From NCBI GenBank assembly GCA_013360865.1, contig JABWAS010000003.1, forward strand, positions 681-64,680: a DNA stretch of 64,000 bases. Direction: 5' to 3'. Position 1 is the stretch's first letter; each line of letters opens with the position of its first letter. A model generated the notes under the pieces. The model did no database searches. It was not told the origin of the DNA and worked only from the letters and a program-made list of their open reading frames with translations. This document shows, in pieces, positions 3,171-60,520 of this stretch. Both the position numbers and the translations under genes were made by a program. Source of the DNA: Candidatus Paceibacter sp. (lineage in GTDB: Bacteria; Patescibacteriota; Minisyncoccia; UBA9983).

Positions 3171-4661
3171 TTAATTTTTTTGGCGATGGAAGCTTATCGC
3201 CTTCGCGAACAAACGGGCGTATTCCGCCGCCGACTTGTCCCAGGAAAAATCGGCGGACATGGCGTTCTTCTGGATTTTCTGCCAGATTTTTTGATGTTTA
3301 TGATTTTCAATAGCCCTGACCACCGCCCCGAAAAGGGAATAGCCGTTAAACTTTTCAAAGACGAAACCGGTTCCCTTTTTAGAAACGGGGTCGTAATCGG
3401 ACACGCTGTCGGCCAGACCGCCCGTCTTCCTCGCTATCGGAATGGCGCCGTATCTCATCGCTTCCATCTGGGTCAGGCCGCACGGCTCAAATTTGGAAGG
3501 AATGACGACGGCGTCGGCTCCGGCAAAAACCATCCTCGGCAAAACATTGTCAAAAGAAAGATGGGTGGCGACGTTGGGATAATTTTTTCCCAGCTCGGTG
3601 AAAAACGACAAATATTTTGAGTCGCCCGTTCCCACCACGACGAGCTGGAAATTAAAATTTTCCAAAAGCGGCGGCAAAGCTTCCATCAACAGGTCCACTC
3701 CTTTCTGTTCGGTGAGTCTGGACACCAAACCGAGGAGAAAAACATCATCCGGTTTATCCGGAAGGTTGAACTTGTGGCGCAGCGCGGTTTTGTTCTTGGC
3801 CCGCTCGCCCAGTTTTTTGGGGTTGTATTTGATCTCAACACTCGGGTCGGTTTCCGGATTATATGTTTCGTAATCTATCCCGTTGAGGATGCCGAACAGG
3901 CGAGACCTCCTTTCCTGCAGAAGCCCGTCCAGCAGTTCGCCATATTCCGGCGTGGTTATTTCCTTGGCGTAAGTGGGAGAAACGGTGTTGACCGCGTCGG
4001 CGTAAATTATCCCCCTTCTCATGGAATTTATTTTCAGCAGCCGCGGGTCCGTTATGTCCGGCACGGGCGAATGGCCGTCGTCGTAATCCATCTCGCTGAC
4101 GAAACGATGGTCAAACACACCCTGATAAGAAAGATTGTGAATGGAGAAAACCGTGGCGATATCTTTCAAAAATGGGTTGTCCTTGTATTTTGTTTTAAGG
4201 TAATTGGGAATGAGGCCGGTCTGCCAGTCGCAGGCCACGATAACGTCCGGCCGCCAGTCTTTGTAAAAACGGATGAACTCCAGCGCCCCCCGGCAAAGAA
4301 GCGCCCACCTGGCCGCGTCGTCGGCGTAGCCGTAAATGTTGGCTCTCTGTTCGTAATACTCCTGATTTTCCAGAAAATAAACGGGAACGGCGGCATTTTC
4401 CGAAGCGAAAGCTTTGACGTTGCATATTATCATTTCCGAATCGTTGTTGGGCACTTCCAGCCGCTCAAAAACCATCCGCGTCGGACAATTTGTCCGGTCT
4501 ATTGAACCGTAAAATGGAAGCATTACGCGCGCGTCGTGCCCCAACTTCGCCAGCGCTTTCGTTAAAGAATGGACGGCGCTGCCCAAACCTCCGGCCTTGG
4601 CGAACGGAGCCGCCTCGGAGGCGACGAAAAGAACTTTTAGCTTGCTGTCTTTTTTAAACAT
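3171..4661 (-). CDS. glgA: Glycogen/starch synthase (GT5)
   Basis: The N-terminus KVLFVASEAAPFAKAGGLGSAV is the GlgA ADP-glucose binding motif, and the GT-B C-terminal half follows. Confidence 0.85.
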   Translation of the reverse strand: MFKKDSKLKVLFVASEAAPFAKAGGLGSAVHSLTKALAKLGHDARVMLPFYGSIDRTNCPTRMVFERLEVPNNDSEMIICNVKAFASENAAVPVYFLENQEYYEQRANIYGYADDAARWALLCRGALEFIRFYKDWRPDVIVACDWQTGLIPNYLKTKYKDNPFLKDIATVFSIHNLSYQGVFDHRFVSEMDYDDGHSPVPDITDPRLLKINSMRRGIIYADAVNTVSPTYAKEITTPEYGELLDGLLQERRSRLFGILNGIDYETYNPETDPSVEIKYNPKKLGERAKNKTALRHKFNLPDKPDDVFLLGLVSRLTEQKGVDLLMEALPPLLENFNFQLVVVGTGDSKYLSFFTELGKNYPNVATHLSFDNVLPRMVFAGADAVVIPSKFEPCGLTQMEAMRYGAIPIARKTGGLADSVSDYDPVSKKGTGFVFEKFNGYSLFGAVVRAIENHKHQKIWQKIQKNAMSADFSWDKSAAEYARLFAKAISFHRQKN

Positions 4662-4754
4662 ATGGTTTCTATTATAGTTTTTTTAAAAAAATTGTCATTG
4701 TTTGCCGCGCCGCCAACCTTGCGGAAGTTTAAAAAATAAGTATAATTTAGATTA

Positions 4755-6209
4755 ATGACAGCTAAAAACCTAACATCCAGGCCGCCAGTAGTGGTGGTGA
4801 TGGGACATATTGACCACGGGAAATCAACCCTGCTTGATTACATCAGGAACGCCAATGTCACCGCCAAAGAGGCCGGCGGCATAACCCAGCACATCGGCGC
4901 TTATGAGGCTGAAGTTGAGAGCGGCGGAGAAAAAAGAAAAATAACTTTTCTGGACACTCCCGGGCACGAAGCTTTTTCTCAAATGAGAACGCGCGGAGCC
5001 AGAGTGGCCGACGTGGCCGTTTTGGTGGTAGCGGCGGACGACGGCGTCCAGCCGCAGACAATGGAGGCTTACGAAACTATAAAAAAATCCGGCCTGCCTT
5101 TCATCGTCGCCATCAATAAGATAGACAAACCCGGCGCCGAGCCGGAAAGAGTCAAAGCCCAGCTGGCCGAAAAAGAAATATTTTTGGAAGGCTACGGCGG
5201 CAACATCCCCTTCGCCAACATCTCCGCCAAAACCGGCCAGGGCGTGCCGGAACTTCTGGATTTGGTGCTGCTCCAGGCCGAGCTGGGAGATTTAAAAGCC
5301 GACCCCGAAGAGCCGGCCTCCGGCGTGATAATAGAATCAAAACTTGATCCAAAAAGAGGCATTTCTTCCACATTGCTTATAAGAAACGGCGCGATGAGAA
5401 AAGGGCAGTTCATCGTCGCCGGCCAGGTTTCCGCCCCTGTAAGAATTTTTGAGGACTTCAAAGGACGCCCGTTGCAGGAGGCGACTTTTTCCTCTCCCGT
5501 CAGAATCACCGGCTTCAGCGGACTGCCCGCCGTAGGCGACGAATTCAAAACTTTTGCCGGCAAAAAAGAAGCGGAGCAGTTTATGCTCCAGCTTAAAGAA
5601 AAAATAACCAAAAAATCTTTGCCGGAAAAATCCGCCGCGGCTCCGGAAATCAAAGACAAGGCGTATGTCCGGATGATAATCAAGACGGACACCGCCGGAT
5701 CACTGGAGGCGCTGGAGAAAGAACTGTTCAAACTCAAAGACGACGAGGTTGTCTTAACTATGCTCAAGGGCGGCGTTGGCAACATAAACGAAGATGACGC
5801 CAAATTCGCCTCAGCTTCCTCCGGCTCCGTGATTTTCGGTTTCAACACGGGAGTTGACGCCGCCGCCAAAGAAATAATCGAGCGTTACAAAACGCCGTTT
5901 TTCGTTTCGGACATAATTTACAAAATAAGCGACTGGCTCAAGGAGGAAATCGCCAGAAGAAAAGCGGAAATTCCAAGGGAGGAAATCATCGGCACGGCCA
6001 AAATACTAAAAACTTTCAGCCGTCAGAAAAACAAACAGGTCATCGGCGGAAAAGTTGTTTCCGGCAAAATGGTTGAGGGCAAAACCTTCAAAATCAAAAG
6101 GCGCGACGCCGAGATTGGCGAAGGACGAATTCGGCGCCATGACGGAAAACAAAATAGAAATCGTCCGCGACGACGAGATAGTGATTATAGGGAAATAAAA
6201 AGAGGCTGA
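4755..6209 (+). CDS. infB: Translation initiation factor IF-2, compact form lacking N-terminal domains; possible frameshift near the 3' end
   Basis: G1 GHIDHGKSTLLD, DTPGHEAF, NKID G4 motif, and the IF-2 domain II/C-terminal pattern. The last ~25 aa (RRHDGKQNRNRPRRRDSDYREIKRG) look out of frame; the +2 frame gives …EFGAMTENKIEIVRDDEIVIIGK, which is closer to the IF-2 C-terminus. Confidence 0.75.
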   Translation: MTAKNLTSRPPVVVVMGHIDHGKSTLLDYIRNANVTAKEAGGITQHIGAYEAEVESGGEKRKITFLDTPGHEAFSQMRTRGARVADVAVLVVAADDGVQPQTMEAYETIKKSGLPFIVAINKIDKPGAEPERVKAQLAEKEIFLEGYGGNIPFANISAKTGQGVPELLDLVLLQAELGDLKADPEEPASGVIIESKLDPKRGISSTLLIRNGAMRKGQFIVAGQVSAPVRIFEDFKGRPLQEATFSSPVRITGFSGLPAVGDEFKTFAGKKEAEQFMLQLKEKITKKSLPEKSAAAPEIKDKAYVRMIIKTDTAGSLEALEKELFKLKDDEVVLTMLKGGVGNINEDDAKFASASSGSVIFGFNTGVDAAAKEIIERYKTPFFVSDIIYKISDWLKEEIARRKAEIPREEIIGTAKILKTFSRQKNKQVIGGKVVSGKMVEGKTFKIKRRDAEIGEGRIRRHDGKQNRNRPRRRDSDYREIKRG

Positions 6210-7277: not shown

Positions 7278-7329
7278 AATTTAATTCGCTGACTTTTTCG
7301 CCGAATTTAATTCGCTGACTTTTTCGCCG
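7278..7329. repeat. Perfect 26-bp tandem duplication (aatttaattcgctgactttttcgccg x2) at the 3' end of tyrS
   Basis: Copy 1 is 7278-7303 and copy 2 is 7304-7329, with identical sequence. Confidence 0.9.
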
Positions 7330-8477
7330 TTTAGTTCTATGGCGTTGTTTTGAATATCTTCGCGCGCCTGGCGTTTGGAATCAACCACTTTTGCCACCAC
7401 CAAGAAATCGGCGATGTTGAGGCCTCCGCCGGCCAGCGGAAATTTTTCCAGTTTTACCACCGATGAGTCGGTAAAAATTTGTTCCAAGTCGTCTTCGCTC
7501 AAATCTTTTATTTTGCCGCCGAAAAGTTTTTCGGAAATTTTCACGGCGACGGCGCAAGCCTTTTCGCTGTGGACAAAAACCGTTACCTCTTTAGCCAGCG
7601 TTTTCTGCGCTTCTCTTTTCTCCGGTTCTGTTTTTGTTTTTTCTTCCAGCGCTTTTATTTCTTCCAGACTTAAGAATGTATAATATTTTAAAAGTTTAAC
7701 AACATCGGCGTCTGTAGTGTTGAGCCAAAATTGATAAAAATGATAAGGCGAGGTCATTTTCGCGTCCAACCAGACGGCGTTGCCTTCCGATTTGCCGAAC
7801 TTTTTTCCGGAAGCGTCCGTCACTAACGGCCAAGTCAGACCTAAAACCTCCTTGCCTTTTGTCTTTCTCACCAGCTCAATTCCAGCCGTGATATTCCCCC
7901 ACTGGTCGGAACCGGCGATTTGGAATCCGCAGCCGTATTTTTCATCAAGCTGCATAAAGTCATATGCTTGGATGAGAGAGTAGCTGAACTCGGCAAAAGA
8001 AATACCATACTCCAACCGATTTTTTACCGCTTCTTTGGCAAGCATCTCGCTGATAGTAAACTTCTTGCCGATGTCGCGGATGAAATTAATGAAAGAATAA
8101 TCTTTAAACCAGTCGTAATTGTTTACGAATATTGCCTGCTTTTTAAAGTCAAAAAAACGGCCAAGCTGGTTTTTCACTGATTGGGCGTTTTGCTCAACTT
8201 CCTCCTCGCTTTTTAGTTCCCTTTCCGCCATTTTCCCACTTGGGTCGCCAACAAGCCCGGTCGCGCCGCCGACAAGAATAATCGGCTTCAACCCGGCTTG
8301 TTCCAGTCTTTTGGCTGTTATTGTCACCAGCAAATTTCCGACCTGCAAGCTCTCTCCGCTTGGGTCAAAACCACAGTAAAAATTGTTGCCTTTTTTTGCC
8401 AAATACTCTTTTACTTTTTCTTCGTTGGAAACCTGGTAAATAAGCCCTCTCTGTTTTAATTCCTCAAATATGTCCAT
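7281..8477 (-). CDS. tyrS: Tyrosyl-tRNA synthetase, C-terminally truncated by a 26-bp tandem duplication
   Basis: Class I TyrRS pattern GFDPSGESLQVGNLL (HIGH position reads QVGN), KFGKS (KMSKS), and a C-terminal S4 domain. See the finding on the duplication. Confidence 0.85.
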   Translation of the reverse strand: MDIFEELKQRGLIYQVSNEEKVKEYLAKKGNNFYCGFDPSGESLQVGNLLVTITAKRLEQAGLKPIILVGGATGLVGDPSGKMAERELKSEEEVEQNAQSVKNQLGRFFDFKKQAIFVNNYDWFKDYSFINFIRDIGKKFTISEMLAKEAVKNRLEYGISFAEFSYSLIQAYDFMQLDEKYGCGFQIAGSDQWGNITAGIELVRKTKGKEVLGLTWPLVTDASGKKFGKSEGNAVWLDAKMTSPYHFYQFWLNTTDADVVKLLKYYTFLSLEEIKALEEKTKTEPEKREAQKTLAKEVTVFVHSEKACAVAVKISEKLFGGKIKDLSEDDLEQIFTDSSVVKLEKFPLAGGGLNIADFLVVAKVVDSKRQAREDIQNNAIELNGEKVSELNSAKKSAN

Positions 8478-8551: not shown

Positions 8552-8624
8552 TCGGGGTGGCAGGACTTGAACCTGCGACCTCCGCATTGTGGGCGGCGCG
8601 CTTCCTAAGCTGCGCTACACCCCG
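8552..8624 (-). tRNA. tRNA, 73 nt, isotype unresolved (non-canonical anticodon arm)
   Basis: Canonical acceptor stem (CGGGGTG/CACCCCG plus A73), D-arm GCGC-AGCTTAGGAA-GCGC, and T-arm GCAGG-TTCAAGT-CCTGC. The only reasonable anticodon hairpin is CCGC-CCACAAT-GCGG, which has no U33 and reads ACA, or CAC if the loop is shifted. Confidence 0.55.
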
Positions 8625-8629
8625 GAGAA

Positions 8630-8815
8630 CTAAGCTCTAGTGTCCAGATCAGGGTTAATGTCATCAACCATAATCCAGTGTCCGGCATAACCTTTCCTGT
8701 ACCCTTTTTTAACCATCATTTTGTCTAAATCATCTTGGGTGCAGTTCCAGGTCGGACAAATCAGCGATGCAAAAATATTAACAAAAAAGCTTAAAATTTT
8801 TTCAATAAACTTCAT
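8630..8815 (-). CDS. Small hypothetical protein (61 aa) with hydrophobic N-terminus and CPTWNC motif
   Basis: Strong SD AAGGAGA 7 nt upstream of the ATG, and a TTGACT-N16-TACTAT promoter-like sequence upstream. It lies between tRNA genes. Confidence 0.35.
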   Translation of the reverse strand: MKFIEKILSFFVNIFASLICPTWNCTQDDLDKMMVKKGYRKGYAGHWIMVDDINPDLDTRA

Positions 8816-8909
8816 TTTATTCTCCTTATAAAAGTTTAGGAAAAATAAATGTCAAAAAACGATACGTTACATATAGTATCATTTTTGGTTAAAAAGTCAA
8901 ATTGGCTAC

Positions 8910-9007
8910 GCGGGTAAGGAGAATCGATCACAAATAATTTGCTTCGCAAATTTTCGCGACCCCACCTCGTTCCGCAAAGCGGAACTCCGGCCTTCGATTC
9001 TCTTACC
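8910..9007. repeat. tRNA-Gly 3'-end-derived inverted repeats (GCGGGTAAGGAGAATCGA … TCGATTCTCTTACC) enclosing ~65 nt of small hairpins, downstream of tRNA-Gly
   Basis: 8910-8927 repeats the first 18 nt of the tRNA-Gly gene's plus-strand footprint (9059-9076). 8994-9007 is its near reverse complement. Confidence 0.6.
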
Positions 9008-9057
9008 TGGCTATAAAAATATATTCGCAAACGCTTCGCGTTTTCTCATTATTTTTA

Positions 9058-9128
9058 TGCGGGTAAGGAGAATCGAACTCCTGTCTCATCCTTGGCAAGG
9101 ACGTGTTCTACCACTAAACCATACCCGC
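9058..9128 (-). tRNA. tRNA-Gly (GCC)
   Basis: GCGGGTA acceptor, anticodon stem-loop CGTCC-TTGCCAA-GGATG, T-loop TTCGATT, A73; CCA not encoded. Confidence 0.85.
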
Positions 9129-9211
9129 CTTCGCTACGCTTCGGCGGGCAGGCCCGCTTTGGCGCAGTTGCAATAAAATAAATTATATACGAATACTACA
9201 AAAAATAAAGG

Positions 9212-9294
9212 TGCTGGGGAGAGGACTTGAACCTCCACGGGGTTTCCCCCACCAGCTTCTAAGGCTGGCGTGTCTGCCATTCCACCACCCCAGC
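9212..9294 (-). tRNA. tRNA-Leu (TAG), type II with long variable arm
   Basis: Acceptor GCTGGGG, anticodon stem-loop CCAGC-CTTAGAA-GCTGG, variable arm TGGGGGAAACCCCGT, T-loop TTCAAGT. Confidence 0.85.
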
Positions 9295-9306
9295 AAATAA
9301 ATATTA

Positions 9307-9379
9307 TGCCCTGTGAGGGATTCGAACCCCCGACCATCTCCTTAAGAGGGAGTTGCTCTACCAACTGAGCTAACAGGGC
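9307..9379 (-). tRNA. tRNA-Lys (CTT)
   Basis: Acceptor GCCCTGT, D-arm GCTCAGTTGGTAGAGC, anticodon loop CTCTTAA, T-loop TTCGAAT. Confidence 0.8.
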
Positions 9380-9427
9380 AAAATCCGCTATTAGAATAGC
9401 GGATTTTGGTTTTTAATCAAGTAAAAT

Positions 9428-10387
9428 TTATTGCAGCTTCGCCGCTTTCCTCGGCGGGAACCTGTCCAGATCTATGGTGCGGGGAAAACAAGATCTGCCT
9501 TCCTCGTGAATCCAGTTTTGGTTTATACCCAGGCCATCAACGGCAATAGGTATTCTCTTTGGTCCGTTAATATTCTCGTCTTTGTTGGAAGTTTTAAATT
9601 CGGCGCAAAGTTCAAATGACAAATTGCCCGTCGTTCGGTACTCATAGGGCAGACCGGTTTCCGGATCATTGGGCGGGATAAAGCCAGTGATGTCGTTTTT
9701 CAACTCGTCCAGATTTTGGGGCAATCTTCCTTTCGTCTGCCAGTAATCAACAACCTGCCATTGGATATTGGAGAGGTCGTCTACCCTCCTTTGGTCAAAC
9801 TGCCTTAATCTCTCCGATTGGGGCAAGCCCACGGTGTAAAAACCGAAGATGACGGCGATGCCACCCAACGCGACCATTGTCCTGATAAGCGCCTTCATTT
9901 TGGGATTGGACGAAGGCGCGGTCTCTTTTCTCAAAATCCAGCCGTAATAAAAGAAGGCGGCGATGGCGATAACCAACACAGTCATAATTTTCAGAAGGAA
10001 GGGCATTGTCAGACTGCCGTTTAAAAATTGATAAACTACCGTGACGAAGTCGCCGGCCATGGTTATTATCGCCACAAAAAGAGTGAAGTACAGCAGCCAC
10101 TTTCTGATTTTAAGAGTCTTTTTTTCCGGATTAGCGGCAAGGTCTTTCTGGATAAATGACGATATCCATACGTAGAAAGGGAAAGCGATGGCCAGAACCG
10201 AAAGCGGCCACCTTAAGTTAGCCCTTATCCCTCCGGCGGTAATATGTCTCAACGGGTCGGGAAAATAAAAATCAACAAAGTTGAATACGACTATGCTGAA
10301 GAATACGACGCAGACGTAAAACGATATGATAGCCAAAAGGTTCAAGAACACGTCCTTCGGCCCTGTTTTTTTGATTTCTTCGTTCAT
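9428..10387 (-). CDS. Hypothetical polytopic membrane protein with a GspG/pseudopilin-like C-terminal periplasmic domain
   Basis: The likely true start is MNEEIKK at 10385-10387, because the longer ORF would overlap tRNA-Leu. Several TM helices, then …LPQNLDEL…DPETGLPYEYRT…. Confidence 0.55.
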   Translation of the reverse strand: MNEEIKKTGPKDVFLNLLAIISFYVCVVFFSIVVFNFVDFYFPDPLRHITAGGIRANLRWPLSVLAIAFPFYVWISSFIQKDLAANPEKKTLKIRKWLLYFTLFVAIITMAGDFVTVVYQFLNGSLTMPFLLKIMTVLVIAIAAFFYYGWILRKETAPSSNPKMKALIRTMVALGGIAVIFGFYTVGLPQSERLRQFDQRRVDDLSNIQWQVVDYWQTKGRLPQNLDELKNDITGFIPPNDPETGLPYEYRTTGNLSFELCAEFKTSNKDENINGPKRIPIAVDGLGINQNWIHEEGRSCFPRTIDLDRFPPRKAAKLQ

Positions 10388-10430
10388 AAAAATGATTATA
10401 GCATAATTTATAAAGTTCGTTCCGAACAAT

Positions 10431-10511
10431 TGCCGGTGGTGGGACTCGAACCCACATCCCTTTCGGGACACGATTTTAAGTCGTGCGTGTATACCATTCC
10501 ACCACACCGGC
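10431..10511 (-). tRNA. tRNA-Leu (TAA), type II
   Basis: Acceptor GCCGGTG, anticodon stem-loop CACGA-CTTAAAA-TCGTG, long variable arm, T-loop TTCGAGT. Confidence 0.85.
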
Positions 10512-10517
10512 ATCCAA

Positions 10518-10589
10518 AGGCGCGGGCGGGAATCGAACCCGCGTATGGCGGTTTTGCAGACCGCAGCGTTACCACTTCGCCACCGCGCC
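10518..10589 (-). tRNA. tRNA-Cys (GCA)
   Basis: Acceptor GGCGCGG, anticodon stem-loop GCGGT-CTGCAAA-ACCGC, T-loop TTCGATT, discriminator U73 (Cys identity). Confidence 0.85.
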
Positions 10590-14096: not shown

Positions 14097-15425
14097 ATGA
14101 GCATTTGGTGGAAGTTTTACCTGAAGAGAATTTTTCTGTTGGTTGCAAGTTTGGCTGTAATTGGTTTGATTACCCTGCTGGTTATGGGGGGTTTCTCAAA
14201 AATAGCGGATTACGCGTACCATCTCGTCGCCTGGATTTTGCAGCGGCTTACTGATCCAAATTGGAACTGGGACTGGAAACATTGGACAGTGTTTGGTTTA
14301 TCTTTGGGTATATTGTTGTTTGTTTATCTCCTTGCTTTTTTGCTGGGGCAAAGCAAAACAATAATTACAATGCCTAAGGAAGGAGAAATTGAGTTGGCGG
14401 TAAGAGGAGAAAGCTTCTTAAAAATCATACCCAATATAAAAGGGTATGGGACAAAAGAAGATGAAATAGAGGCGGACATAGGGGGCAAAATAATAAAAAT
14501 AAAAACACCCCAAATCTGTCCAACCGAAGAAGGAGGAAAACCGCCTAGAAAATTTCTCGGACTTGCGCTTGTAGGGCTGTTTATACCTTTTGATAAGATT
14601 CTTCGTTATGACTTTAGTTGGGATAAGGCCATCTCAAAAGCAACAGCCGATGAAGAAAAGAAAAAAGGCGCCAGCGTTGAGGAAACTTCTTTTGGCGACT
14701 TGTGGCTGTCCCACAGGACGGAAAAAGTGTCTTCTTTATATTTTAGGTACACTTACCCGATAATAGTAAGGAACATTGAACTTGCGGGCAGGTATCCTAT
14801 TGATATCTACTTTAACGTTACGGTTGAGGCGGTTTATCCCATCATCCCGGTGTTTTACCTTAAAGGTAGGTGGTTTACCGTGCTAAGTTCCAAGTTTGGA
14901 GGCGTAATAAGCGATCTTCTAAGGGGTAAGGAGCTGAAAACTTTTGAAGAAATGGAAAAAGAAGATTTCTTCAACGGAAAGGTTAAAGAAGAAAATAATA
15001 TTTTTCTCAAAGCAACGGGGATGAAAATATTCCATGCCGCTTACAGAGATTACCAACCGTCTGGAACTTTAGAAGAAAAAACAGCAGCTTCCGCGGAAAA
15101 AGTGGCCAAACTTAGAGCTGATGCTAGGAAACAAGAAGCAGAAGGAGAAGGAGCCGCGCTGGAACGGGAAGGCGTAGCAAAAGCAAAAAATCTTGAACGA
15201 CTACTTGAACAAGCCAGCAAACACCCTCTCGGTGGACAAATCCTGATAGAACAATTTCGAAAGGAAGGGTTGGAGGGTTTTAGCGGCAATTTCCTAAGTC
15301 TGGGTCAAGCTCAACCCGCCGCTCCCATGATCGGAGTAGACGCAGGCGGCACAGGCGGTAAAAACAAAAAAACAGGAAAAAAGAAGCAAGAACCAGAAGA
15401 ACCAAAAGAAGAAGAGGAAGAATAG
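14097..15425 (+). CDS. SPFH/band-7 (flotillin-like) membrane protein with a Glu/Lys-rich tail
   Basis: N-terminal TM helices. The C-terminal coiled coil …KLRADARKQEAEGEGAALEREGVAKAKNLERLLEQA… is typical of flotillin/YqiK. Confidence 0.45.
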   Translation: MSIWWKFYLKRIFLLVASLAVIGLITLLVMGGFSKIADYAYHLVAWILQRLTDPNWNWDWKHWTVFGLSLGILLFVYLLAFLLGQSKTIITMPKEGEIELAVRGESFLKIIPNIKGYGTKEDEIEADIGGKIIKIKTPQICPTEEGGKPPRKFLGLALVGLFIPFDKILRYDFSWDKAISKATADEEKKKGASVEETSFGDLWLSHRTEKVSSLYFRYTYPIIVRNIELAGRYPIDIYFNVTVEAVYPIIPVFYLKGRWFTVLSSKFGGVISDLLRGKELKTFEEMEKEDFFNGKVKEENNIFLKATGMKIFHAAYRDYQPSGTLEEKTAASAEKVAKLRADARKQEAEGEGAALEREGVAKAKNLERLLEQASKHPLGGQILIEQFRKEGLEGFSGNFLSLGQAQPAAPMIGVDAGGTGGKNKKTGKKKQEPEEPKEEEEE

Positions 15426-15441
15426 AAAGGAGGAATAACAA

Positions 15442-16287
15442 ATGGACAAAATGATATGGGGATTGGCAATAGTTTTTGGCGTAATCGCTTTTATTTCTTT
15501 TTTGCTGTGGCAAAAGTCAAGCGGCTACAAAATAAGCATGAAGGGGTATCTGCCCAAATACCCTGGGACATGGAAAATAATAGGGTTAATTTTCGCCGGT
15601 GGAGCGGCATATGGGATATATTTGATTGTTTGCAGTTATATCCCGCCCCAGAGCGAGCGGTTGTTTAAGCAGGTGGTTGAAAAACAAAAGGCGCAAGAAA
15701 TTGCGCCACTGCTTAAAGAGTTGCAGGATATCACAGAAGGAACAAGTACCGCTTCGGGCGTCGGAAAGGCGAAAGGGATTAAGGATGAAATTGAAGTCAT
15801 TGAGAAAAAGTACGACAAGATATTGGATCCGGAATCCGCAAAAGAAACTCCTCCTCCCCGTGTTTATGTGGAATGGGTTTTAGAGATTAAGGCGACCTCC
15901 GCCCTCATAGAAAGTTATGAGAGGCAAAAGCCATTAATTCAGAGGCCCGTGGCCTCAATAATATGGGACAAAAACAAAATGTCCCTAAAATACCTCGCGA
16001 AGAGCGACGGCAAGGAGCGAGAAATTATTCTGGAGAGGGATGTTCCGGAACAATTTTTTGCCGGGTATTATTGGAATAGCGATACCCGGAAAAATTCCGT
16101 CTTGTGGCTGAAAGAGCCCCAGGGCGGTGTCGCAAATAAATTTGAATCTTACGACCAGATAAAAAAAGAAAAGGTCGTAAGAGAAACGATTTTCACCGGT
16201 TGGATGTCAAAAAACAGCCGGGGCGATACGATGGATGCGGAAGTATCCATCATCAAGCAAACAACAACGGCAGCTAGCAAAAACTAG
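15442..16287 (+). CDS. Hypothetical membrane protein (2 N-terminal TM), probably co-transcribed with the SPFH gene
   Basis: It starts 17 nt after the SPFH stop and is followed by a terminator. Confidence 0.45.
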   Translation: MDKMIWGLAIVFGVIAFISFLLWQKSSGYKISMKGYLPKYPGTWKIIGLIFAGGAAYGIYLIVCSYIPPQSERLFKQVVEKQKAQEIAPLLKELQDITEGTSTASGVGKAKGIKDEIEVIEKKYDKILDPESAKETPPPRVYVEWVLEIKATSALIESYERQKPLIQRPVASIIWDKNKMSLKYLAKSDGKEREIILERDVPEQFFAGYYWNSDTRKNSVLWLKEPQGGVANKFESYDQIKKEKVVRETIFTGWMSKNSRGDTMDAEVSIIKQTTTAASKN

Positions 16288-16300
16288 CTGCCGCTTTTTT
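16269..16300 (+). terminator. Rho-independent terminator (GGCAGCTAG…CTAGCTGCC plus T6), shared by convergent genes
   Basis: A perfect 9-bp stem followed by TTTTTT. Confidence 0.7.
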
Positions 16301-16319
16301 ATGCCGATAATTCAGAAAT

Positions 16320-16790
16320 TTATTCTAAATCTATCCCCCCGCCCTTACTGCTCGCGTTTCCTCCCTGCAAAACGCTGTCATAAAGATACGGCACGTCCGG
16401 CGGGCTGTCGTCCAAGTCAAAAGTATTTACCAAAATATTAACTATCCCCCAGAAGCTTATCATTACGAACAGGCCAATGACGCCGAACGTCATCATTTTG
16501 CCCGCCTCTTTCCTTTTATCCTCGTCGCCGCCGGAAGTGATGTATTTTAAAATGCCGATAAGAAAATAAACGACGGCCAGGGCGACAATCAAAACAACGA
16601 CAATATCCAAAATGTCCAAAATTATGTAAAGCAAATCCCACAAACCTCCGCCGCCTCCTCTTCCGGTGTATCTTGTGCTTACATCAACGTCGTAATCTAT
16701 GAGGTTGTCCTGCGCCAAAGCAAAAACGGGCAGGAAGTAAACGACTACGGCTAATAATTTTTTAAGATAATTTTTTATTATTCTCCTCAT
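16320..16790 (-). CDS. Small secreted 2-TM protein, VirB2/TrbC-pilin-like, paralog 5 (156 aa)
   Basis: Signal peptide ending …VFALA-QD, then two hydrophobic helices separated by SGGDEDKRKEAG, with the conserved FGVIGLFVMISFWGIVNIL motif. Confidence 0.5.
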   Translation of the reverse strand: MRRIIKNYLKKLLAVVVYFLPVFALAQDNLIDYDVDVSTRYTGRGGGGGLWDLLYIILDILDIVVVLIVALAVVYFLIGILKYITSGGDEDKRKEAGKMMTFGVIGLFVMISFWGIVNILVNTFDLDDSPPDVPYLYDSVLQGGNASSKGGGIDLE

Positions 16791-16797
16791 AATACGG

Positions 16798-16844
16798 CAT
16801 CAAGGTTCCTACTTGATAGTTGCTATAAAGGAGGAACCTTGATG
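16798..16844. promoter_or_regulatory. Palindromic element CATCAAGGTTCCT…AGGAACCTTGATG, 10 nt upstream of the paralog-5 start
   Basis: 13-bp perfect inverted arms, related to the element at 17531-17577. Confidence 0.5.
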
Positions 16845-16866
16845 CAACCAGACATTCAGCCCAATC

Positions 16867-17130
16867 TTAATAAATTGATTCAATGTCCCACCAGAAATCA
16901 GACAAAATATTGATTATGCCGTAAGCGGAAATCATCACGAACATCCCGATCACTCCGTATATCATATGTCTCTTGCCCTTGCTTCTTACGTCCTCGTTTT
17001 CCGCGCCAAGAATATACTCTGTTATGCCGTAAATGAACATAACCGTAGCCACGGCAAACATAAAGCCGATTATCGGGTTTAGGATAAGGTGCTTTACGTT
17101 GTTTATCAGCTTTACGGTTTCAGCGCTCAT
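16867..17130 (-). CDS. Small 2-TM protein, VirB2/TrbC-pilin-like, paralog 4 (87 aa)
   Basis: Two hydrophobic helices separated by AENEDVRSKGKRH; conserved YGVIGMFVMISAYGIINIL. Confidence 0.45.
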   Translation of the reverse strand: MSAETVKLINNVKHLILNPIIGFMFAVATVMFIYGITEYILGAENEDVRSKGKRHMIYGVIGMFVMISAYGIINILSDFWWDIESIY

Positions 17131-17131
17131 T

Positions 17132-17476
17132 TTATATCTGTGGCAGAACGTCTATATCCGGCAAGTCGTTGTCCAGATTAAAAGTTCCTTCCAGAATATT
17201 GACCAATCCCCAGACACTGACCATCACGAACAAGCCGATGATGGCGTAGATGATGAGATTGTGGTAATTCTTCCTCTTTTCTTCGTCTTCTCCGGCTCTT
17301 ATGTAACCGATAATAGCTATCAACAAGATAATGACGGCGATAGCGATTATCAAAGGAACGATTTTGTTCAATATGTCGCCGGTAAGATCAATAAGATCGT
17401 CTAAGCTGGAAACGGCTCCGGCCGCCAAAGGAAGACCGAGCAGTCCGAAAGTTAAAACCTTTTTAACTAAATTCAT
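17132..17476 (-). CDS. Small secreted 2-TM protein, VirB2/TrbC-pilin-like, paralog 3 (114 aa)
   Basis: Signal peptide …LAAGA, loop AGEDEEKRKNY, conserved YAIIGLFVMVSVWGLVNIL. Confidence 0.5.
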   Translation of the reverse strand: MNLVKKVLTFGLLGLPLAAGAVSSLDDLIDLTGDILNKIVPLIIAIAVIILLIAIIGYIRAGEDEEKRKNYHNLIIYAIIGLFVMVSVWGLVNILEGTFNLDNDLPDIDVLPQI

Positions 17477-17494
17477 AAATTAATTTTTAAATAT

Positions 17495-17510
17495 TTTTGG
17501 TCGACCAAAA
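17495..17510. promoter_or_regulatory. 16-bp perfect palindrome TTTTGGTCGACCAAAA in the paralog-3 promoter region
   Basis: It lies between the big palindrome (17531-17577) and the start codon (17476). Confidence 0.4.
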
Positions 17511-17530
17511 TTTTCTAATAATAATTCTGA

Positions 17531-17577
17531 CATCAAGGTTTCTCCTTGATAGCTGCTATCAAGGAGAAACCTTGATG
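17531..17577. promoter_or_regulatory. 47-bp perfect palindrome CATCAAGGTTTCTCCTTGATAGC t GCTATCAAGGAGAAACCTTGATG upstream of paralog 3
   Basis: 23-bp arms with a nested inner palindrome CCTTGATAGCTGCTATCAAGG. Confidence 0.55.
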
Positions 17578-17617
17578 TTCTATAATAATAAACCATTATT
17601 TCAAAAACAGCTACAGT

Positions 17618-17995
17618 TCAAAGCGCCTTGACTGTGGATTGCAAAACTTCCGTTATGACCCAGGCTCCCACCAGTATACCTGTTCCTATTATCGCCCAAA
17701 GCAGACCTTTTTTGGCGTCGGTTAAGGCTTTCTCGTCGCCTCTGGCCATTACCATTCTTAATCCGGAATAAATTATAAACACTACCGCTATGGGTATGCC
17801 TATTTCTATGGCCAAAGTGGAGATTGTTTTAACTAAGTCGCTGAAAGAACTGGAAGTCAGCGGGTTGCAAAGAACGCTTGTTTCCGAACCGGAGTAGAAC
17901 TCGCAATCCGAGGAATTTTGGGCGCGGGCGGACAGAAAAAAATTAAAATAATTGAATGTCGCCGCTACGATTATGAATATTTTCTTTTTTAGCAT
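17618..17995 (-). CDS. Small secreted 2-TM protein, VirB2/TrbC-pilin-like, paralog 2 (125 aa)
   Basis: Signal peptide …LSARA-QN, a Cys pair in the mature N-terminus, loop ARGDEKALTDAKKG, second TM LLWAIIGTGILVGAWVITEVL. Confidence 0.45.
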   Translation of the reverse strand: MLKKKIFIIVAATFNYFNFFLSARAQNSSDCEFYSGSETSVLCNPLTSSSFSDLVKTISTLAIEIGIPIAVVFIIYSGLRMVMARGDEKALTDAKKGLLWAIIGTGILVGAWVITEVLQSTVKAL

Positions 17996-18025
17996 ATAAA
18001 GTTTGTTTTTAAATGTAATTTAGCT

Positions 18026-18451
18026 TTAATCGTCGCCTTCGCAACCGGGGAAGGCGTACCACGATTCGGAAAAATCTTTGTCCGCCAGAGCCCCCAAAAC
18101 AGTGTTTACCATAACCCACGCCGCGAAGGTTATAAAAAGACCGACCACGGCGGCCCAAACAGCGTTGGTGCCGGATGACTTTTTCTTCTCGTTGCCCCCG
18201 GAAGTTATAAGCATTATGCCACCATAAATAAGAATTATCGCGCCCAGCGGAGCGGCGATGGTGAACGCGGCGAAATTAACCACGTTGGAAACAAGTTCAA
18301 ATATGTCGCAGATCTTGCAATCAAGGCCGTCGCAGGGAATAATGTCCGATTTTTCCTGGGCGAAAGCGGGAACGCTTAAAAAGAGATTGGCCGCCATAAA
18401 AACCGTTCCGATTATCGCCGCTTTTAAAATTTTTGTTTTCCTTTTTATCAT
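18026..18451 (-). CDS. Small secreted 2-TM protein, VirB2/TrbC-pilin-like, paralog 1 (141 aa)
   Basis: Signal peptide …PAFA-QE, CDGLDCKIC, loop TSGGNEKKKSSG, second TM AVWAAVVGLFITFAAWVMVNTVL. Confidence 0.45.
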   Translation of the reverse strand: MIKRKTKILKAAIIGTVFMAANLFLSVPAFAQEKSDIIPCDGLDCKICDIFELVSNVVNFAAFTIAAPLGAIILIYGGIMLITSGGNEKKKSSGTNAVWAAVVGLFITFAAWVMVNTVLGALADKDFSESWYAFPGCEGDD

Positions 18452-18463
18452 TTTTTAGATTAG

Positions 18464-19783
18464 TTAAGGTTTCTTCAGCAGCTGGTCAATTTTTCTCTTT
18501 GCCGTCAGAACAGCTTCGGAAACGGTGGCCCGGCCCGAGGCCGCCGACTCCGCCATATCTTTGAAAACCAGATAGGTCGCCTGGGCGTCCGGGTCAATCC
18601 AGGCGCGGGTCATCACTGCCGCCTTGTTTATCAGGGAAAAGTAGGCGTCGGAGCTCCTTTCGGCCAAAACGTCTCTTCTGGGGGAAGCCAGTCCGGCGGC
18701 CTGGGAAAACCTCTTGGAATTCGCTCCGGAGGTCATAGTGGCGATGGCCGAGAAAGCAGCCTGCTTTTTCGGGGAATTTTTCAGAATCGCCAGTCCGTAA
18801 ATTCTGCCGAAATCCAGCTTACTCCTTGCGTCTTTAAGCTGCGGAACCTCGGCAATGTCAAAATCAAGATGGGGATTTTTGGCTCGAAGTCCCGGCGCTT
18901 CGCCGGCAAAGCCGAAATACATTGCCAATGATCCGCGGGCGAACATCGCGTCCGATTTGGGCAGAGCCTTGTTCCAGGAATAACTGTTTTTGGATGGATT
19001 GGAAAATTCATTGAAGAACCGTACCGAGGCTTCCGCCGGGCTCACTTGTTTTCCACCGCCATCCAACGCCGCTCTCAAGTTACCTCTTGAGTCAGCTTTT
19101 ACTATCGGCTCGCCCGCCTGCAGCATAAGCAGAGACATTATGTCCTTCGCATTGCGAACGTTAGTAAATTCTCCCAGCGCCGCGCCGGACACCTCCACGT
19201 TGCCGGCCTCGTTTTTCTCGGTAAAGATTCCGGAATATTGGGCGAACTCGTCCCAGTTTTTGGGCGGCTGGCTGATGCCGGCGGAAGAAAACATTTCTTT
19301 GTTCCAGTAAAGAATCATCGGGTCAACGAGAAACGGGACGGCCGTTATGCCGCCGCCGCTTTTATCCATATAAATTTCCGCGCCGTCAATGAAGTTGTCC
19401 AAAAAACTCCTTTCCGGATAATTGACGAACGGCACCGTGTAAATTCTTTCTTTGTTTTCCAGAACCATATCCTGGCTTACAATCCAGAAGTCCGGCCCGC
19501 GGCCGGAAGCCAGCGCTTCTATCGTTTCGCTTTCGTAGGTCGCCGGATTTTTTTCCTCGTATTTTATGTTGAAAAAATCTTTGTTTTCTTTGTTTATCGC
19601 CGAGACGACCGGCCAGATTTTTTCCTGGGGCAAAGTTCCCCACATCACCAGATTGGCGGCCGGGCCCCGCTTGTTTTTATTTTTGTAGCCGGGCAGGAAC
19701 CCGCCGAAGATCATCACTGCCAGAACCGCGCCTAAAATGAGGACGCCCGTGACCGCTATGGGGAAAAAGCTAATTTTTTTCAT
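18464..19783 (-). CDS. ABC transporter substrate-binding protein (family 1, sugar-type), membrane anchored, with no adjacent permease genes
   Basis: N-terminal TM anchor, then …ANLVMWGTLPQEK… with a MalE-like fold pattern. Confidence 0.65.
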   Translation of the reverse strand: MKKISFFPIAVTGVLILGAVLAVMIFGGFLPGYKNKNKRGPAANLVMWGTLPQEKIWPVVSAINKENKDFFNIKYEEKNPATYESETIEALASGRGPDFWIVSQDMVLENKERIYTVPFVNYPERSFLDNFIDGAEIYMDKSGGGITAVPFLVDPMILYWNKEMFSSAGISQPPKNWDEFAQYSGIFTEKNEAGNVEVSGAALGEFTNVRNAKDIMSLLMLQAGEPIVKADSRGNLRAALDGGGKQVSPAEASVRFFNEFSNPSKNSYSWNKALPKSDAMFARGSLAMYFGFAGEAPGLRAKNPHLDFDIAEVPQLKDARSKLDFGRIYGLAILKNSPKKQAAFSAIATMTSGANSKRFSQAAGLASPRRDVLAERSSDAYFSLINKAAVMTRAWIDPDAQATYLVFKDMAESAASGRATVSEAVLTAKRKIDQLLKKP

Positions 19784-27827: not shown

Positions 27828-27858
27828 AGCCCCGCCAGAGGTCGGGGCTTTGTTTTTT
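27828..27858 (+). terminator. Rho-independent terminator (AGCCCCG…CGGGGCT plus T-run)
   Basis: 7-bp GC stem followed by TTTGTTTTTT. Confidence 0.65.
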
Positions 27859-27894
27859 CATTTTAAAAGTCCCCTTTTGCTGTATAATAATTGG

Positions 27895-28440
27895 ATGGCG
27901 CTGATACAAAATATTGACCTCTGGGCGGCCGGTTACGCCGAATCAATACGGAGCGTTTTTTTGACTTCGTTTTTCAAGACTGTCACTTACTTAGGCGAGT
28001 GGTCTATTGTTCTGGCGGTAGCCATAATCGTCGCTTTAGTTTTGATTACCAAAGGGAAAAAGGTTTATGCCCTCACTCTGGCCTTGATAACATTTTTAAG
28101 TATCGGCTCCGTCTTTATTTTAAAATACGCTATTCAACGCCCACGGCCAATTGACGGCATTATTGACGAAACTTCATTTTCTTTCCCCAGTCTTCATGCC
28201 GTTCTTTCCGTAGCTTTTTATGGTCTGATAATTTATTTTTTGTGGGAAAGATTTAAAAGCCCGCGGTTCCGCTTTTTTAAAATATTATTCGGCCTTGTTT
28301 TGGTGTTGTTTATCGGCTTCAGCCGCGTTTATCTTGGCGTGCATTATTTGAGCGACGTGCTGGGCGGTTATCTTTTGGGGCTGTTCTGGCTGACGGCCGG
28401 AATTTACGCTTCTTTTAAAAGTGGCAAGGCGAGACCTTGA
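27895..28440 (+). CDS. PAP2-family phosphatase (undecaprenyl-diphosphatase-like)
   Basis: KYAIQRPRP, SFPSLHAV, SRVYLGVHYLSDV; the start is moved to the first ATG after the terminator. Confidence 0.7.
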   Translation: MALIQNIDLWAAGYAESIRSVFLTSFFKTVTYLGEWSIVLAVAIIVALVLITKGKKVYALTLALITFLSIGSVFILKYAIQRPRPIDGIIDETSFSFPSLHAVLSVAFYGLIIYFLWERFKSPRFRFFKILFGLVLVLFIGFSRVYLGVHYLSDVLGGYLLGLFWLTAGIYASFKSGKARP

Positions 28441-28471
28441 CATAAGTCATGTCAAGGTCTCGCCTTGCCAC
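28421..28471. repeat. 51-bp palindrome GTGGCAAGGCGAGACCTTGACAT aagtc ATGTCAAGGTCTCGCCTTGCCAC overlapping the PAP2 stop
   Basis: 23-bp perfect arms; it shares the GCGAGAC/GTCTCGC core with 44161-44204 and 51961-52007. Confidence 0.8.
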
Positions 28472-28492
28472 TTGCCAAAACCATAATCAACC

Positions 28493-30668: not shown

Positions 30669-30718
30669 AAAATCAAGGTTAAACCTTGAGATGCTTTTTA
30701 AGGTTTAACCTTGATTTT
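30669..30718 (+). terminator. Inverted repeat AAAATCAAGGTTAAACCT…AGGTTTAACCTTGATTTT plus T-run downstream of recG
   Basis: 18-bp arms, an A-run before and a T6 run after, so it may act in both directions. Confidence 0.55.
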
Positions 30719-31197: not shown

Positions 31198-31273
31198 TGG
31201 TGCGCGCACTAGGACTCGAACCTAGGACCACCAAGGTATAAGCTTGGCGCTCTACCAACTGAGCTATGCGCGC
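31198..31273 (-). tRNA. tRNA-Ile with anticodon TAT (UAU); CCA encoded
   Basis: Acceptor GCGCGCA/TGCGCGC, D-arm GCTCAGTTGGTAGAGC, anticodon stem-loop CCAAG-CTTATAC-CTTGG, T-loop TTCGAGT, A73 plus CCA. Confidence 0.75.
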
Positions 31274-34536: not shown

Positions 34537-34886
34537 GGGGATGATCGGCCTGGACAAAGAGTACGTTTAAATCACGCAAGCCGAGTGTTCTAAAAACTCG
34601 TAAAACTTTCAGAAATCTAATTAAGCGTCAAAAACTTATTTAGCCAACCGGCGTTAGCTTACGCTTAACCCGGCGTTCCCCCGGCCCACTTCCGATAAGC
34701 CGGACGGAATGTCATTTATCGGGATAGGAAAATTTCCGCCTCAAAAATTTTCCGAAAAATTAGAGGCTCTGGATTCGGAGATTTTGATTGTTTAATACCC
34801 CGTTTCCGAAACGAACAAACAACCTAAGCTTGTAGAACTGATTTAAAACAGCTTTTTGCACGGCGGTTCGATTCCGCCCATCTCCA
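34537..34886 (+). ncRNA. ssrA: tmRNA (transfer-messenger RNA)
   Basis: The 5' end GGGGATGATCGGCCTGGAC pairs with the 3' CATCTCC-A. The T-arm is GGCGG-TTCGATT-CCGCC. It is ~350 nt and adjacent to smpB. A candidate tag frame ends …QPALAYA followed by TAA. Confidence 0.7.
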
Positions 34887-34996
34887 TAAATAAAATGCTC
34901 CAGCTTGCCTAGGGCCATTTTTATTTATGAGCACGATGAAACGGAATCGAACGGACTGACTAAATGTCAGTCCGCGGAATTTTCCATAAGAAAATT

Positions 34997-44150: not shown

Positions 44151-44160
44151 ACTTGGAAGA

Positions 44161-44204
44161 AACTTGGAAGCGAGACTTCCGATTGGAAGTCTCGCTTCCA
44201 AGTT
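44161..44204. repeat. Palindrome AACTTGGAAGCGAGACTTCC gatt GGAAGTCTCGCTTCCAAGTT immediately after the nirK stop
   Basis: 20-bp arms with the GCGAGAC/GTCTCGC core. Confidence 0.75.
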
Positions 44205-44216
44205 TAAATCTCGTAA

Positions 44217-44254
44217 ATAAAACCCAGCCACGAATATGGCTGGGTTTTATTTTG
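44217..44254. terminator. Bidirectional rho-independent terminator (AACCCAGCC…GGCTGGGTT, A-run before and T-run after)
   Basis: It lies between the convergent nirK and RRM-protein genes. Confidence 0.7.
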
Positions 44255-60103: not shown

Positions 60104-60465
60104 TAATTATTTTTTAATTATTTAAAATTTATAATTTTATTAATTTTAAAAACAAAAATATTTTGAAATAAACGCGAAATCGCTGAAGAAAAACCCGTCT
60201 GGGCGCTTGCCCCGTACCACGCCTCTAAGGCTGTGGTTTTTGCTTCATGCTTGTAATTTCAAAGCGTTCACCCCACTTTCGCCGGCGTGCTTTTCGCGTG
60301 GTATGGGGTAAAAGGCAAAAAAATAACAAAAATCCTCAAATTCGGATCCTTTGATAAAAATTTATTGTATTGCCTTAATAATATACTTTATTTTTTATCT
60401 GTCAACTCCACACATTCTTAAAAATTTCAACCTGTGGATAAGTAACCCAAAAAACCGACATCCGA

Positions 60466-60520
60466 TGTCTGAGAATTTTTGACATCGGATGTCGGTTTTA
60501 ATCCCGTCTGTTGTTGGTTG
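60466..60520. promoter_or_regulatory. Doubled palindrome CCGACATCCGATGTC…GACATCGGATGTCGG, flanked by an A-run and a T-run, in the rpoB/GT2 divergent region
   Basis: 15-bp inverted arms, each arm itself palindromic (GACATCSGATGTC). Confidence 0.45.

Follow-up and report, generated by a model that had tools for sequence, protein, structure and literature searches.

In the window analysed here, a 64,000-nucleotide stretch of Candidatus Paceibacter sp. contig JABWAS010000003.1, two long palindromes, designated E2 (17530-17578) and E5 (16797-16845), lie between tandem genes for small pilin-like proteins. Both belong to a dispersed family of inverted hairpin doublets, and in related genomes of the candidate phyla radiation (CPR) the same type of hairpin flanks a Y1/HUH gene resembling those for REP-associated tyrosine transposases (RAYTs; REP, repetitive extragenic palindromic). 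Other copies stand in frame inside genes, and the occupancy of orthologous sites is patchy and variant. We consider it likely that E2 and E5 are copies of a dispersed REP-type family, probably spread by a RAYT-like enzyme and probably carried in the pilin operon as near-neutral passengers.

E2 is a 49-bp perfect palindrome, with 24-nt arms around a 1-nt centre. An earlier sequence-only reading had correctly described it as perfect but set its limits one base short on each side (17531-17577). The design is nested: each arm is itself a hairpin of the form ATCAAGG-N5-CCTTGAT, and the two hairpins, ATCAAGG-TTTCT-CCTTGAT (17532-17550) and ATCAAGG-AGAAA-CCTTGAT (17558-17576), are inverted with respect to each other and have reverse-complementary loops, as in a REPIN-like REP doublet. 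E5 had been recognized by its 13-bp perfect outer arms (16798-16844); these are present, but the description was incomplete, and E5 is a full-length homologue of E2 in the form of a degraded doublet copy. The two are identical at 42 of 49 positions (86%), the pairs at positions 1/49 and 12/38 are compensated, three differences break pairs in E5, and the E5 loops, TTCCT and AGGAA, retain their complementarity. Folding of the sense-strand RNA gave -37.2 kcal/mol for E2 (z = -10.9) and -28.1 kcal/mol for E5 (z = -6.2). E2 is located 39 nt past the stop of the pilin gene 17618-17995 and 53 nt ahead of the start of 17132-17476, both on the minus strand; E5 is located 21 nt past the stop of the pilin gene 16867-17130 and 6 nt ahead of the start of 16320-16790.

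Perfect palindromes are a known class of metagenome-assembly artefact, which raises the question of fold-back chimeras arising in assembly or amplification. We compared strain-level contigs from one NCBI assembly and seven sequencing-run assemblies; the sequence is the same throughout, in 8 contigs for the E2 region and, for the E5 region, in the 7 that extend far enough. Since both elements are identical across separate assemblies, they are not assembly artefacts. The elements also lie inside long contigs, the copy within dnaG preserves the reading frame, and compensated variants are found in other species; the probability of an artefact is negligible.

A search of the window for long inverted repeats (arms of at least 14 nt, at most one mismatch) returned 13 matches, among them five terminators of the A-run/stem/T-run kind and six nested palindromes of the E2 design; E5, which falls below the threshold, is the seventh. 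All seven doublets are inverted with complementary loops, and five are extragenic. The basic unit is a 15- to 25-bp hairpin with a perfect stem of 5 to 10 bp ending in AGG, a 5-nt loop, and a closing CCT; in this genome it is mostly (T/G)CAAGG-N5-CCTTG(A/C), and two inverted units form a nested palindrome of 33 to 55 bp. E1 (28419-28473; 25-nt perfect arms; CAAGG-CGAGA-CCTTG and CAAGG-TCTCG-CCTTG) provides the final codons and the TGA stop of a PAP2-family open reading frame (ORF; 27850-28440); its end lies 19 nt short of recG (start, 28493). E7 (30669-30718), downstream of recG, has 19-nt perfect arms (TCAAGG-TTAAA-CCTTGA and AAGG-TTTAA-CCTTGA) and A-run/T-run flanks; it is the inverted repeat that the sequence-only reading had reported as sharing the half-site, as we confirmed. 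E3 (51961-52007; 23-nt perfect arms; GTCAAGG-TCTCG-CCTTGAC and GTCAAGG-CGAGA-CCTTGAC) lies in frame inside dnaG (51559-53244, minus strand), where it encodes 15 residues of the linker before the C-terminal domain. E4 (44160-44205; GGAAG-CGAGA-CTTCC and TTGGAAG-TCTCG-CTTCCAA) is a variant doublet in which the loop is closed by AAG/CTT; it directly follows ORF 43062-44150, precedes a classical terminator (44215-44252), and has the same CGAGA/TCTCG loops as E1. E8 (60451-60499), a CGACATC-C/G-GATGTCG nested palindrome between divergent genes, is tentatively assigned to a second REP type; it is unchanged in a strain contig (L215), and its CGACATCGGATGTCG core occurs twice in L213. A-run and T-run flanks, seen on E7, are also present on E4 and E8. 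No doublet was found in the ~10 kb to the right of the window, as read from a strain-level contig.

The core motif is enriched in the window. We counted AAGG-N5-CCTT 10 times, where 1.4 were expected and 300 simulations gave at most 6; 9 of the 10 are within doublets. CATCAAGGTT, with one mismatch allowed, occurs 12 times against 3.9 expected. The single 5-mers are not enriched outside doublets: the 64 kb contain 66 copies of CAAGG and 76 of CCTTG, where random expectation is ~62. This bears on a different account, in which the elements would serve as paired signal sequences for DNA uptake, a process on which CPR bacteria are believed to rely. In Neisseria and Haemophilus, uptake sequences are often paired in inverted orientation and located downstream of genes or within genes for genome maintenance; here, too, the units form inverted pairs, and copies lie in or beside dnaG and recG. 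With a conserved core of just 5 to 6 nt, however, and with variable loops and flanks, no long specific signal is left, and the association with an HUH transposase-like gene would go unexplained. We regard an uptake function as extremely unlikely.

That association came to light when the host ORF of one motif-selected locus (L008) proved to encode a Y1_Tnp (IS200-like) protein by Pfam. A tblastn search with this protein gave 14 hits in 13 other motif-selected loci, mostly within ~100 bp of a doublet. L007 and L043 carry identical doublets at either end of the RAYT-like gene, and flanking hairpins were also found in L070, L086, and others. We then picked 80 metagenome loci (L132-L211) by protein similarity alone, which removes ascertainment by motif. 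In nearly all of them the gene has one hairpin just upstream and another at or over the stop codon; relative to the end of that codon, the median start of the downstream hairpin is -0.5 nt. AAGG-N5-CCTT was present within 160 bp upstream in 33 of 79 cases and downstream in 28 of 73, the background rate for a stretch of equal size being 0.011 (17 in 297 kb). Among hairpins with a 5-nt loop and a stem of at least 6 bp, 116 of 143 gene-proximal ones are closed by AGG/CCT, compared with 19 of 118 elsewhere in the same loci; a further 7 of the 143 (e.g., in L168) are AAG-closed, like E4.

Individual hairpins of the window have counterparts beside these genes. The 7-bp ATCAAGG/CCTTGAT stem of E2 flanks RAYT-like genes in L142, L157, and L204, stems like those of E1 and E3 (ATGTCAAGG/CCTTGACAT) do so in L145, L173, and L194, and the TTAAA/TTTAA loop variant of E7 does so in L133, L137, L153, L166, and L174. 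GACAT-type hairpins resembling E8 are found in the same position in L045, L176, and L200. The RAYT-like gene itself has an internal, in-frame AGG-N5-CCT hairpin in 24 of 80 cases (e.g., L136, L137, L142, L146, and L150), with the stem type of its own flanking repeats. In 21 of the 24, this hairpin lies at a fixed place, 22 to 32 codons ahead of the HUH motif, and between loci it changes in step with the flanking hairpins. The corresponding place reads QGxxL in a consensus of 36 database homologues and coincides with the lowest-confidence block of the structure model (residues 51-60; mean predicted local distance difference test score [pLDDT], 66). One Paceibacterota locus (L043) carries two different RAYT-like genes (1058-1783 and 4752-5477), each with a hairpin type of its own, ATATCAAGG-TCGGT-CCTTGATAT around one and CTGTAGGAGTC...GACTTCTACAG around the other. 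Genes for pilin-like proteins of the type IV secretion system (T4SS) class lie a few kilobases from RAYT-like genes in L007 (4033-4722), L043 (1895-2083), and L133 (3126-3616). This is probably a coincidence, as CPR genomes carry many such pilin genes, and with three cases, too few to carry weight, we set the proximity aside.

The RAYT-like protein matches Pfam Y1_Tnp and has the conserved motifs YHxYNRG, (L)MPNHFHLL (the HUH motif, NHFH), YFNxxxxRxGxLFQGxYK, and YIHxNP. A single-sequence search of the PDB found nothing, and a profile search gave weak matches only. An AlphaFold model (mean pLDDT, 87.5; predicted template modelling score, 0.87) gave as its best fold match in the PDB 4er8, the Escherichia coli TnpA-REP bound to a REP hairpin (E = 3.9e-5; target-normalised TM score, 0.71), followed by the TnpA structures of IS608, ISDra2, and IS200. 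The protein is ~220 to 240 residues long, compared with 165 in the 4er8 chain. The family is very large: at least 8000 homologues were found, each at E <= 1e-10, and those that are named are mostly just "transposase," from Patescibacteria, Paceibacterota, and Minisyncoccia. Because the hairpins flank a transposase-like gene whose product has a predicted fold nearest to TnpA-REP, we take the elements to be REP doublets of a RAYT-like system.

The site in dnaG allowed one position to be followed across lineages. DnaG orthologues P0002, P0003, P0006, and P0008, with only ~63% identity, share a 10-residue segment at the same position of the linker; P0007 and P0013, of similar or higher identity, are without it. 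In the genomes, doublets were located at 51961-52007 of the window, 10351-10397 of L129, 7765-7813 of L130, 10851-10899 of L212, and 11261-11307 of L213, and none was found in L214. Those of L129 and L130 are perfect palindromes of the CAAGG type, with 23- to 24-nt arms and compensated changes relative to the window copy: L129 has CAATGG/CCATTG as its outer stem in place of the CACTGT/ACAGTG of the window, and the loops change from TCTCG/CGAGA in the window to TTTCG/CGAAA in L130. L212 has a GGAAG-type doublet (ACTTGGAAG-TTCGG-CTTCCAAGT) related to E4, and L213 a GGCGG-type doublet (CGTGGCGG-TTTAA-CCGCCACG). Across lineages, four different doublet types occur at this position, and different types at one place imply either recurrent occupation or replacement of a resident copy. 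Two explanations suggest themselves: an existing site that is targeted again for insertion or has its copy replaced, or a single, very permissive linker. Neither insert boundaries nor a target-site duplication could be defined, and palindrome extents are not multiples of 3. The gene order rpoB-rpoC-dnaG-rpoD (~60103 down to 50385, minus strand) is kept in L129, L130, L212, and L213, and the short contig L214 shows rpoC-dnaG-rpoD. L214, the relative with the empty dnaG site, has a 51-bp perfect CAAGG-type doublet (7367-7417) inside its tRNA-guanine transglycosylase (TGT) gene.

A pattern scan of species-representative genomes for CAAGG-N5-CCTTG-N(0-20)-CAAGG-N5-CCTTG gave at least 120 loci, at least 55 of them labelled as CPR. 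The CPR labels among the matches listed are Saccharibacteria, Paceibacterota, Nomura-, Kaiser-, Vogel-, Doudna-, Curtiss-, Gottesman-, and Campbellbacteria. Of the 134 matches listed, 82 have two loops that are exact reverse complements, as do 48 of 60 within the CPR-labelled loci, against a chance rate of 1 in 1024. Loop sequences vary freely yet stay mutually complementary, and the distance between the two hairpins ranges from 2 to 19 nt across copies. Among the matches listed, 29 of the 48 loop-complementary CPR copies lie in frame inside ORFs, by crude ORF calls, and the intragenic copies use all three reading frames, giving peptides such as QGxxL, KxSPC, and SRxNL. Besides two RAYT-like genes themselves, 14 hosts were confirmed by Pfam: a first set of TatD, a family 4 glycosyltransferase, a type IV pilin, and a Laminin_G protein, and a second set of LepA, BipA, RsmA, MurB, PrmC, two class V aminotransferases (Aminotran_5), a P-type ATPase, an HhH-GPD glycosylase, and a phosphoribosyltransferase-domain protein. 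Identical doublets are repeated within single loci in L006, L007, L020, L043, and L213. In L020, from Saccharibacteria, the same doublet (4645-4678 and 7321-7354) stands near the 5' end of two paralogous Laminin_G-domain genes, before a hydrophobic segment; these two copies may lie in a 5' leader instead of the protein. Many-copy CAAGG-N5-CCTTG doublets with a genome-specific extension of the stem (e.g., TGTTCAAGGCTAAGCCTTGAACA and GTGACAAGGGCGGCCCTTGTCAC) were also seen outside CPR, in the Omnitrophota metagenome-assembled genome (MAG) KR13_S3.mb.80 (L003, L012, L021, L032, L037, and L111), Amycolatopsis xylanica (L025-L113), and a Planctomycetales MAG (L044, L057, L097, and L119), and another Omnitrophota locus, L063, also has a RAYT-like gene. 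The distribution of AGG-N5-CCT hairpins may extend beyond CPR.

The pilin-like array in which E2 and E5 reside consists of five tandem small genes on the minus strand (16320-16790, 16867-17130, 17132-17476, 17618-17995, and 18026-18451), all of which match Pfam PF18895 (T4SS_pilin; E = 1e-7 to 1e-12). The sequence-only reading had favoured operators at this place: a dimeric or tetrameric transcription factor would bind the four TCAAGG/CCTTGA half-sites and control the pilin-like genes, possibly by phase control. The 11-bp centre-to-centre spacing of the half-sites would suit a helix-turn-helix dimer, and E2 and E5 do lie upstream of pilin-like genes, but both are intercistronic in a same-strand array, occupy its two widest intergenic gaps, and are as much downstream of one gene as upstream of the next. 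A consensus scan of 16000-18700 found no sigma-70-like promoter adjoining E2 or E5, the number of sites being no higher than in shuffled sequences. As for a co-occurring regulator, Pfam recognized no helix-turn-helix or other DNA-binding domain in the array-adjoining genes scanned, namely the binding-protein gene 18464-19783 and ORFs 14097-15425 and 15442-16287, the last two of which have no Pfam match at all. The same type of element is found inside dnaG, over the stop codon of the PAP2-family ORF, after recG, and in many CPR housekeeping ORFs, i.e., within coding regions and with no promoter association, which is the distribution that the sequence-only reading had itself named as refuting its proposal. 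The variable distance between hairpins leaves no fixed geometry for a tetramer, freely varying but complementary loops point to a hairpin or an inverted duplication rather than two independent operators, and some half-site mutations in E5 are uncompensated. We conclude that operator function is very unlikely; the alternative offered by the same reading, a genome-wide REP-like family, is the one that the data support, including the hairpin-flanked RAYT-like gene of related genomes.

A 16-bp palindrome, TTTTGGTCGACCAAAA, had been singled out at 17495-17510. It is present, with no second occurrence in the window, but is unremarkable: perfect 16-bp palindromes number 4 in the window, where 1.6 are expected (maximum 6), and as a chance-level, unique sequence it was rejected as an operator. 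The single GTCGAC (SalI site) of the window lies within it (17500-17505); around a dozen would be expected in 64 kb at 46% G+C, by a rough estimate, and this scarcity could reflect restriction-site avoidance. Of the five pilin-like genes, exactly two (16867-17130 and 17132-17476) stand between E5 and E2, in the manner of a cassette. As a weaker corollary of the slot idea discussed below, the two elements could mediate excision, inversion, or exchange of the bracketed pair; among the strain-level contigs spanning both elements, none is rearranged.

The stability of the predicted hairpins raises another possibility, that they are host RNA elements (terminators, RNase III sites, or mRNA stabilizers) that evolved in place, are not mobile, and tune the expression of the pilin paralogues. 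Most copies in the window follow ORFs, the A-run/T-run flanks of E7, E4, and E8 resemble those of bidirectional terminators, and REPs are known to act in such ways (Di Nocera 2013, PMC3733652). On the minus (sense) strand, however, no T-run follows E2 or E5, and the sole terminator-like call, for E2, is on the plus (antisense) strand. The ordinary terminators of the window (6191, 8515, 9379, 44215, and 45607) differ in design, in-frame copies occur in essential genes, where termination would be harmful, and the fixed AGG-N5-CCT core shared with the transposase-flanking hairpins is left unexplained. Rfam, run on the whole window at the gathering threshold, gave no match at the palindromes and found tRNAs and a transfer-messenger RNA (tmRNA) only: the tmRNA at 34537-34889, a six-tRNA cluster at 8552-10589, and a further tRNA at 31201-31273. 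An origin as host RNA elements is in our view unlikely. It competes with the REP account as to origin only and is compatible with a secondary role of an inserted REP.

By analogy with REP/RAYT and IS200/IS605 systems, the RAYT-like enzyme would recognize the hairpin in single-stranded DNA, with cleavage and rejoining beside it; TACAAGGTCCAACCTTGTA is a candidate for its single-stranded hairpin substrate. Cutting and rejoining of this kind would move or copy doublets to new sites, and the copies that survive would be those in intergenic gaps or in tolerant protein loops, in frame. The patchy and variant occupancy of dnaG and the identical copies within loci are signs of mobility or turnover, and the uncompensated mutations of E5 fit a non-essential copy under weak constraint. 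In the pilin operon, if it is co-transcribed, E2 and E5 would form very stable RNA hairpins lacking a U-tract, which could, like REPs elsewhere, shield upstream mRNA from 3' exonucleases or attenuate read-through as a by-product of insertion.

Several observations count against assigning E2 and E5 to a RAYT-spread family. Neither tblastn nor a maximum-sensitivity hidden Markov model search found a RAYT-like gene in the window, and none was found in the ~10 kb further right in a strain-level contig. No conserved tetranucleotide of the GTAG/CGTC tag kind was found in the flanks; GTAG/CTAC is missing from 105 of 115 RAYT-proximal hairpins, including 4 nt on either side. The sole meaningful NCBIfam match of the protein, NF047646 (REP-associated tyrosine transposase), scores 38 to 50 bits, under the 80-bit equivalog cut-off. 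No pair of empty and filled sites was seen between close strains, the contigs covering E2, E5, or E8 being identical there and hence uninformative on covariation and on presence or absence; transposition is deduced from homology only. Finally, whereas the REPINs of Pseudomonas form populations of near-identical sequences, loops and flanks differ considerably among the window copies.

A more speculative extension, which we regard as possible although doubtful, is that REP copies in Patescibacteria are heritable "slots," rewritten to match the current specificity of the RAYT, and that some have been co-opted. It is prompted by the internal hairpins of RAYT-like genes, which co-vary with the flanks, and by the four doublet types at the dnaG linker. 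Co-opted slots may include sites of autoregulation in the RAYT-like gene and structured elements inside essential genes. If this were true, many of the peptide insertions in CPR housekeeping proteins would go back to the RAYT-like system, as a major source so far undescribed, and the sites of a domesticated transposase would be evolving in concert with it.

For the pilin-like array, the REP assignment removes a tempting regulatory reading and gives at least seven long palindromes in the window a single cause. Streamlined CPR genomes, among the smallest known, appear to keep a widespread and possibly undescribed system of the REP/RAYT type. Through in-frame repeats, CPR proteins would gain insertions specific to a lineage, a point that matters when such proteins are aligned, placed in phylogenies, or modelled in structure, and the AGG-N5-CCT hairpin offers a simple recognition motif for the biochemistry of divergent RAYTs as well as a marker for finding the elements. 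In the literature searched, the coverage of which was incomplete, we found no description of REP elements or of a RAYT link in Patescibacteria; one preprint places a REP-associated tyrosine transposase beside rbcL in a Pacearchaeales archaeon and calls a Minisyncoccia (CPR) locus transposase-free.

Among known systems, the Rickettsia palindromic elements (RPEs) resemble the CPR doublets in inserting in frame and adding short peptides to conserved proteins in a reduced genome (in CPR, DnaG, LepA, BipA, RsmA, MurB, and others). The likeness is one of description, and the CPR doublets differ in having an associated RAYT-like gene; RPE-1 is also considerably longer than the 33- to 55-bp doublets. 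The ends of IS200/IS605 elements and of their miniature derivatives, the PATEs (palindrome-associated transposable elements), likewise have subterminal hairpins that are read on single-stranded DNA by a Y1/HUH TnpA, and IS TnpA structures form the second tier of fold matches. IS200/IS605 ends have two different imperfect hairpins and defined cleavage tetranucleotides, whereas the CPR flanks carry the same type of perfect hairpin on both sides, and the closest fold is that of TnpA-REP, not an IS TnpA.

REPINs are closer. Those of Pseudomonas are well above 33 to 55 bp in length, and the window doublets, at that size, are diverse rather than a tight, near-identical population. The architecture is shared: REPINs are inverted REP doublets that form hairpins (Bertels and Rainey 2011, PMC3116915), two inverted units and a short spacer making one long hairpin that is taken as the mobilised unit, and E2 is a small-scale case of it.

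The nearest relatives are the REP/BIME and RAYT (TnpA-REP, or "REPtron") systems of Enterobacteria and Pseudomonas, where BIME denotes a bacterial interspersed mosaic element; the characterised work behind our mechanistic analogy includes that of Bertels and Rainey (2011, PMC3116915) and Di Nocera (2013, PMC3733652) and, reportedly, that of Ton-Hoang and Messing from 2012. Both systems have a short hairpin repeat, dispersed (here, as seven doublets in 64 kb) and often in inverted doublets, and a single Y1/HUH gene flanked by the same repeats, with HUH and Tyr motifs and, in CPR, a predicted fold nearest to 4er8. Both also share intragenic copies and the supply of stop codons (PMC3733652); in other phyla, REPs show intragenic copies, REP-supplied stop codons, and a bias to replication and repair genes (Di Nocera 2013, PMC3733652). 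The CPR system differs in that its hairpins lack the GTAG/CGTC tag and have perfect stems with a 5-nt loop closed by AGG/CCT, its protein is larger and falls below the NCBIfam RAYT cut-off, and many of its RAYT-like genes contain an internal cognate hairpin. Its hosts are the very small genomes of Patescibacteria, and most of the copies sampled are intragenic, as opposed to predominantly extragenic. We conclude that the CPR system is a partial member of the REP/REPIN-RAYT class.

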